From the sequence record MZ617142.1: 409 bases of DNA; one strand, given 5' to 3'. The position numbers were made by a program, and so were the translations under genes. This stretch comes from a phage. Of the stretch, positions 1 to 409 are shown piece after piece (position 1 is the stretch's first letter; each line of letters opens with the position of its first letter). The notes beneath the pieces were generated by a model. It saw only the letters and a list, made by a program, of their open reading frames with translations, ran no database searches and had not been told where the DNA came from.

Positions 1-7
1 ACAGTGA

Positions 8-409
8 TACATTGATGGTCTGCTGACTGCTGATGTGATGATTTTCGACATTGAAGACGCGATGAACCACTATGACGTGGCTGGCGAGTATTCCAACCAG
101 CTAGGTGAGGCTCTGGCCATCGCTGCCGACGGTGCGGTTTTAGCTGAAATGGCTATCCTGTGTAACCTTCCAGCTGCATCCAATGAGAACATTGCTGGCC
201 TAGGCACCGCCTCCGTACTGGAAGTTGGTACTAAAGCTGACCTCAATACCCCGGCTAAACTGGGTGAAGCAATCATTGGCCAATTGACCATTGCTCGTGC
301 GAAGCTGACCTCCAACTACGTTCCTGCTGGCGACCGTTACTTCTACACCACGCCTGATAACTACTCTGCAATCCTCGCGGCTCTCATGCCCAACGCCGCA
401 ACTACGCGA
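8..409 (+). CDS. 10: Major capsid protein, T7 gp10A-like (HK97-fold); internal fragment, open frame continues past the 3' end of the window, 5' side interrupted by an in-frame TGA at 5..7
   Basis: Seen in sequence: the reading frame starting at position 8 is open for 134 codons to the window end, with no stop. Established knowledge (recalled, not searched): the translation aligns colinearly with T7 gp10A at roughly residues 95-230, with long identical blocks (IDGLLTADV, DIEDAMNHYDV, QLGE, AADGAVLAE, NENI-GLGTA, NYVPA-DR-FY, YSAILAALMPNAA) and an overall identity of about two-thirds by eye. Codon use is strongly biased (ctg, gct, ggc, aac) and GC is about 53% by hand count, consistent with an enterobacterial-type phage. 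The ORF track probably omits this frame because it is unterminated in the window. Confidence 0.9.

Follow-up and report, generated by a model that had tools for sequence, protein, structure and literature searches.

The in-frame stop codon at the 5' edge of a 409-base T7-family capsid gene fragment is most likely an end-of-record sequencing artefact

The closest described counterparts of the sequence analysed here are the major capsid genes (gene 10A, product gp10A) of the Kayfunavirus phages EcoDS1, K1F, and Penshu1 (Autographiviridae, Studiervirinae), along with a solved capsid chain of 347 residues (PDB 9vvq_I). Gene 10A of EcoDS1 has 347 codons; in the relatives, the gene lies between scaffold gene 9 upstream and the tail tube genes 11 and 12 downstream. 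Phages of this Kayfunavirus-like T7 group are lytic, and hundreds of copies of the capsid protein are needed for each particle. Frameshifting is an established property of the gene family: in T7 gene 10, a −1 shift on a G_GU-type X_XXY_YYZ heptamer leads from 10A to 10B (PMC5009743) and adds a C-terminal extension at the 3' end of 10A. In the annotation of EcoDS1, the gp10B-like region starts 19 bases before the 10A stop, at approximately codon 342.

The window, i.e., the whole stretch of DNA that was analysed, is 409 bases long; the source record (MZ617142.1) has the same length, and the ends of the window are the ends of the record. The genes neighbouring gene 10 in the relatives are thus not part of the 409 bases. 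Judged by homology, the window lies inside the major capsid gene of a Kayfunavirus-like (T7 family) phage and corresponds to residues 94–226 of ~347. In a Pfam profile search, its frame-2 protein matched PF21703 (Gp10A-like major capsid protein) with an E-value of 6e-46 and a score of 157.8 bits vs. a cut-off of 27, covering profile positions 35–165 of 279, which places it among the Gp10A-like (T7-family, HK97-fold) major capsid proteins. Comparison with PDB sequences gave a match to residues 94–224 of 9vvq_I (E 2.2e-78) and a match to T7 gp10A, 2xvr_A (E 6.9e-50). Over the 131 residues aligned with 9vvq_I, there was one interior mismatch (T for K), and the last residue, past the 3' deletion described below, also differed. 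The original prediction, made from the letters alone, had named a T7-family capsid gene, and these matches bear it out.

At the DNA level, 223 phage records matched the window, the best of them being the Kayfunavirus genomes of EcoDS1 (92.8% identity), Penshu1, and K1F. The window begins at codon 90 of EcoDS1 gene 10A. Positions 11–399 aligned with EcoDS1, K1F, and related genomes at 91.5–93.3% DNA identity without gaps; three one-base deletions near the ends are found in the window only. Whole-match identity to any record of the phage collection did not exceed 92.8%, so the fragment comes from a lineage absent there, at least for the capsid gene. The DNA of this Kayfunavirus-like capsid gene differs by ~7% from anything in the phage collection searched, and its protein is nearly identical to known ones. 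An Rfam search of the window returned a chance-level match only (sR3, E 0.88).

The features of the window are as follows:
Positions 1 to 10, plus strand: degraded 5' end of the record; K90-V91-I92-T93 (12 bases, AAAGTGATTACC in the closest relatives) held as 10 bases.
Positions 11 to 399, plus strand: intact interior of the Gp10A-like capsid gene; I94-A222 at 11 to 397, and the first two bases of A223 at 398 to 399.
Positions 399 to 400, plus strand: second frame break; the third base of Ala codon 223 is absent (T in close relatives, other bases in distant ones).
Positions 400 to 409, plus strand: 3' terminus of the record; frame 1 encodes N224-Y225-A226, out of register with 11 to 399 by one base.

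The frame disturbance at the 5' end was found as the original prediction had described it. In the capsid frame (frame 2), the window begins with Q-*-Y-I-D-G-L-L, with TGA at 5–7 and att-gat-ggt-ctg-ctg at 11–25, and meets no further stop as far as the window extends; V-I, which had been placed at 4–9 in another frame, is encoded in frame 1, where aca-gtg-ata (T-V-I) occupies 1–9 and is followed by cat-tga. The T7 gp10A sequence that had been given for comparison was also correct, since 2xvr_A reads ...KHTEKVITIDGLLTADV... at residues 88–104 (...KHTEKVITIDGLL... at residues 88–100). A MAFFT alignment put misplaced 16-base gaps at the window ends, and pairwise local alignments were used instead. 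These alignments located the frame switch at the predicted site. The proposed explanation, a deletion of two bases, held only in part: a net loss of two bases was observed against four relatives, but as two separate one-base deletions, one gap lying in TT and one in CC of GTGATTACCATT. No contiguous 2-base deletion yields the text of the window without an extra substitution, so two one-base omissions are the better description. The missing T falls between positions 7/8 or 8/9, and the missing C between 9/10 or 10/11. Where the relatives read AA-AGTGATTACC-ATTGATGG, the window reads AC-AGTGA-TA-C-ATTGATGG, with a private A-to-C change at position 2 that turns a conserved Lys codon (Lys in 48 of 49 relatives) into Thr. 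The TGA at 5–7 in the capsid frame is a by-product of the bases lost at the 5' end.

The set of relatives consisted of 46 viral contigs with a capsid protein, three GenBank loci, and one ENA contig; upstream sequence was available for 49. The 5' site was continuous in all 49, the most distant of which share 73% DNA identity with the window: H-[T/S]-E-[K/R]-x-I-x leads into I-D-G without a change of frame. Homologues carrying the same stop, which had been named beforehand as a possible finding, thus numbered 0 of 49. Ten further database proteins that span the site were likewise uninterrupted, with HTEKVITIDGLL or close variants, and in 30 of the 30 phage matches listed the record stretch was 3 bases longer than the query stretch. 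Several truncated capsid proteins were met in the databases, none of them broken at the 5' site of the window. The junction, a pattern tolerating both the broken and the intact form, and a window-specific internal 23-mer and 32-mer were sought as exact patterns in contigs from viruses, metagenomes, and genomes, with no match; an exact look-up of four possible called proteins among 15 billion sequences was likewise empty. Megablast against 5,426 complete E. coli genomes and 72,556 plasmids found no match, and no papers on frameshifts in Kayfunavirus capsid genes or on PDB 9vvq were found in the literature.

A break at the very edge of a record is where untrimmed adapters are usually met, and the first 10 bases (ACAGTGATAC) could in principle be an adapter, a barcode, vector, or a chimeric junction instead of capsid sequence; the related ENA contig in our set does end in an Illumina adapter. 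We consider such a foreign 5' end very improbable. Nine of the 10 bases aligned to the expected upstream capsid sequence (A, AGTGA, TA, C), with one mismatch and two one-base gaps, and only 222 of 100,000 random 10-mers (0.2%) aligned equally well there. The 10 bases at the 3' end behaved alike, with 264 of 100,000 random 10-mers (0.26%) aligning equally well to relatives of the TAC type. The alignment thus indicates that the record opens with capsid gene sequence and not with adapter or junk; on the grounds of this homology, an adapter or chimera at the 5' end was rejected as a candidate.

The adapter itself is a separate matter, concerning other records. It occupies positions 1747–1787 of the metagenome contig L004 (ENA ERZ27280539 k141_123955), is terminal, and contains AGATCGGAAGAGCGTC; as a consequence, the capsid protein called on this contig ends in the adapter-encoded residues DRKSVV. 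The protein called on another ENA contig (P0019) has the same DRKSVV ending.

The alignments revealed a second frame break, which had not been predicted: the window is one base short at 399/400, with 10 bases left before its 3' end. The relatives read AAC-GCx-GCx-AAC-TAY-GCx at this site (e.g., AAC-GCT-GCT-AAC-TAT-GCT) and the window aac-gcc-gc-aac-tac-gcg; the text of the window at the two break sites is GTGATACATT and GCCGCAACTAC. Due to the missing base, the frame-2 translation of the window ends in PNAATTR instead of the PNAANYAAL of the relatives. The last base (409) is A in the window vs. G in the relatives. Along the window, the capsid frame is thus frame 1 at 1–9, frame 2 at 11–399, and frame 1 again at 400–408. 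The net loss of three bases (two at the 5' end and one at the 3' end) leaves both flanks in frame 1 and the middle alone in frame 2.

One database protein showed a different irregularity at this motif. P0016, from an ENA contig of 24,091 bases, is an otherwise full-length capsid protein that lacks the 10 residues MPNAANYAAL at about 214–215 and reads SAILAAL|IDPETG. The gap corresponds to an in-frame loss of 30 bases between two AAL repeats, exactly at the motif of the 3' break of the window. Natural slippage could have caused this loss, as could an error of assembly.

A frame change in a gene 10 homologue invites comparison with the T7 gene 10 frameshift, with which the window shares the gene family and the change of frame. 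The resemblance ends there. The T7 shift is a −1 shift near the 3' end of 10A, and the window lies away from that end (in EcoDS1, the gp10B-like region starts ~350 bases downstream of the window); its break lies at codon 92–93 of 347, calls for a shift of +1, lacks a slippery motif, and is shared by no relative. A programmed +1 frameshift would be of the prfB or antizyme kind, with ribosomes passing from frame 1 (T-V-I-H-stop) into the capsid frame at ATA-C or CAT-TGA. A stop codon in the A site promotes +1 shifts at the prfB and antizyme sites, and the window does have a frame-1 TGA at 13–15 directly after the switch point (ACA GTG ATA CAT TGA); this TGA could equally be a by-product of the deletions. 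Frameshifting is known in T7 gene 10, albeit of another kind and at another place (PMC5009743; EcoDS1 annotation). Nevertheless, the break was absent in 49 of 49 relatives, and a +1 site conserved in the family is not seen. P-site re-pairing would be poor (CAU to AUU, or AUA to UAC) by established codon–anticodon rules. The switch sequence ACAGTGATACATTGAT, upstream of which the window holds 9 bases, contains no X_XXY_YYZ heptamer. The product of the shift would be one residue short in a length-invariant segment. With hundreds of capsid copies needed, the phage would pay dearly for an inefficient shift so early in the gene. Moreover, the unrelated break at 399/400 would require a recoding event of its own. 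A programmed shift is accordingly extremely improbable, and we give as little credence to a scenario in which the deletions are real, the capsid is made via a +1 shift at 7–15, and a second event at 399/400 compensates. Recoding, mentioned in the original prediction as a less likely cause, is thus very unlikely to explain the stop, given that no relative has the break, that there is no slippery motif, and that there is a second break at the 3' end. If it were true, a T7-family capsid gene would contain a new recoding site in its early part.

The interior of the window presented a different picture from its ends. The reading frame was continuous across 129 codons (11–397) and broken within 10 bases of each window end. 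The 389 interior bases contained 0 indels and 0 stop codons and aligned without gaps to 26 full-length relatives and to the truncated contig L004. The dN/dS of the interior was 0.007–0.044 in comparisons with ten relatives. Only four substitutions were private to the interior of the window, all synonymous, and there were 0 private amino acids in the 129 codons. Ten substitutions were lineage-specific, i.e., distinguished the window from every relative above 90% identity, and all ten were at third codon positions. Three of these ten were located in the last 39 interior bases vs. ~1 expected; this clustering is weakly suggestive and fits a degenerate primer or chance.

The interior also contained 77 homopolymer runs, among them three runs of 4 bases (TTTT twice and CCCC once) and five of 3 bases, and none carried an indel. 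At the edges, by comparison, two 2-base runs were shortened. A platform with a general homopolymer error (454, Ion, or nanopore type) was for this reason rejected as the sole cause.

All three deletions were located no more than 10 bases from an end of the record, the probability of which is 1.2e-4 if three indels are spread uniformly over 409 bases. The 20 terminal bases contained the 3 deletions, the private Lys-to-Thr change, and the mismatched last base; the 389 interior bases contained none such. With lesions at the ends only and a clean interior, it is the position in the record that predicts the deletions, and not the sequence context or biology. This pattern points to a technical origin. 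We therefore put a probability of approximately 85% on the reading that the stop and the frame breaks come from the ends of a short read, contig, or amplicon, these ends being of poor quality or derived from primers, and that the gene itself is intact. A sequencing or assembly indel had been listed second among the causes in the original prediction, and the lesion pattern favours it. The 5' stop of the window is most likely not a real biological feature but an end-of-record sequencing artefact.

According to this explanation by record-end errors, the window would be the whole of a short record (a single read, a low-coverage contig, or an amplicon), and its source would be gene 10, the major capsid gene, of a Kayfunavirus-like T7-family coliphage, most likely intact. 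Base-calling or oligonucleotide errors at the 5' end would have dropped two bases and introduced a wrong one; those at the 3' end would have dropped one base and left one odd terminal base. The dropped bases would move the text from frame 1 into frame 2 at 10/11 and back into frame 1 at 399/400, and would produce the apparent in-frame TGA at 5–7. The error-free gene would presumably read GTGATTACCATT-like and GCNGCNAAC-like at the two sites, in one open frame. The class of cause may be reads of low quality at their ends, contigs thinly covered at theirs, or amplicons with ends derived from primers. Errors at the ends of reads or contigs and n-1 primer artefacts resemble what is seen in the window, as they consist of single-base omissions and odd terminal bases in the last ~10 bases at both ends; they are a class of artefact and not a biological system. 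Contigs of 278–605 bases with fragments of T7-family capsid genes are frequent in public assemblies of bacteria, so a record of 409 bases is unremarkable. Where a short record shows a frame break no more than ~10 bases from its end, neither a pseudogene nor a recoding site should be concluded from it.

The principal competitor of record-end errors, true frameshifts at codons 92–93 and 223 in a phage genome, in a defective copy, or in a remnant, with no full-length capsid protein made, is unlikely. It takes the sequence as written, which does have a stop and two frame breaks, and broken capsid genes exist in otherwise complete T7-family genomes (the capsid proteins of SEA1f and 02_vB_Eclo_IJM have 127 and 82 aa, respectively), although these breaks may be sequencing errors themselves. 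A decaying gene would be expected to show relaxed selection and scattered lesions, which is at variance with the low dN/dS, the lack of private amino acids, and the lack of indels in the interior. Real mutations would further need the ends of the record to fall no more than 10 bases from each of two independent lesions (P ~1e-4), and the broken capsid proteins in the databases break elsewhere, none at the site of the window. As for a prophage remnant, the lytic lifestyle of these phages and the absence of a copy from the complete E. coli genomes and plasmids make it unlikely. None of the marks of a pseudogene (relaxed selection, private amino acids, scattered lesions, residence in a host chromosome or plasmid) was found. 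The pseudogene or defective prophage that the original prediction had considered thus received no support, with purifying selection acting on the gene, lesions at the two ends only, and no E. coli copy. If the lesions were real after all, the phage genome would be defective or, very improbably, would contain a new +1 recoding site.

Several irregularities were noted in the records retrieved. Pieces of T7-family capsid genes were present on contigs of only 278–605 bases in assemblies labelled Cutibacterium acnes, E. coli, Enterobacter hormaechei, and Pantoea ananatis; they are probably phage DNA carried over into bacterial sequencing. Three deposited complete phage genomes had truncated or patchy capsid genes, with various break sites, none of them that of the window (Enterobacter phage 02_vB_Eclo_IJM, 82 aa; Klebsiella phage RCIP0016, 218 aa with internal gaps; Klebsiella phage SEA1f, 127 aa annotated as "major capsid protein"). 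Sequencing or assembly errors are the likely cause of these truncations. The capsid gene of "Enterococcus phage EFA-1", the host of which is given as Enterococcus faecalis, was 91.6% identical to the coliphage-type window. Odd labels were encountered among the records MT350292.1, MK610268.1, KY295894.1, and PQ585404.1; in several genomes, the capsid gene was annotated as "scaffold protein", "minor capsid protein", or "hypothetical protein", and in PQ585404.1 the gene at the portal (gene 8) position was labelled "endopeptidase Rz". In the window itself, an antisense open reading frame of 81 codons, starting with TTG, runs along the minus strand opposite the capsid frame (positions 70–315). It has no support as a gene, and the strand opposite a coding region is most likely open here by chance.
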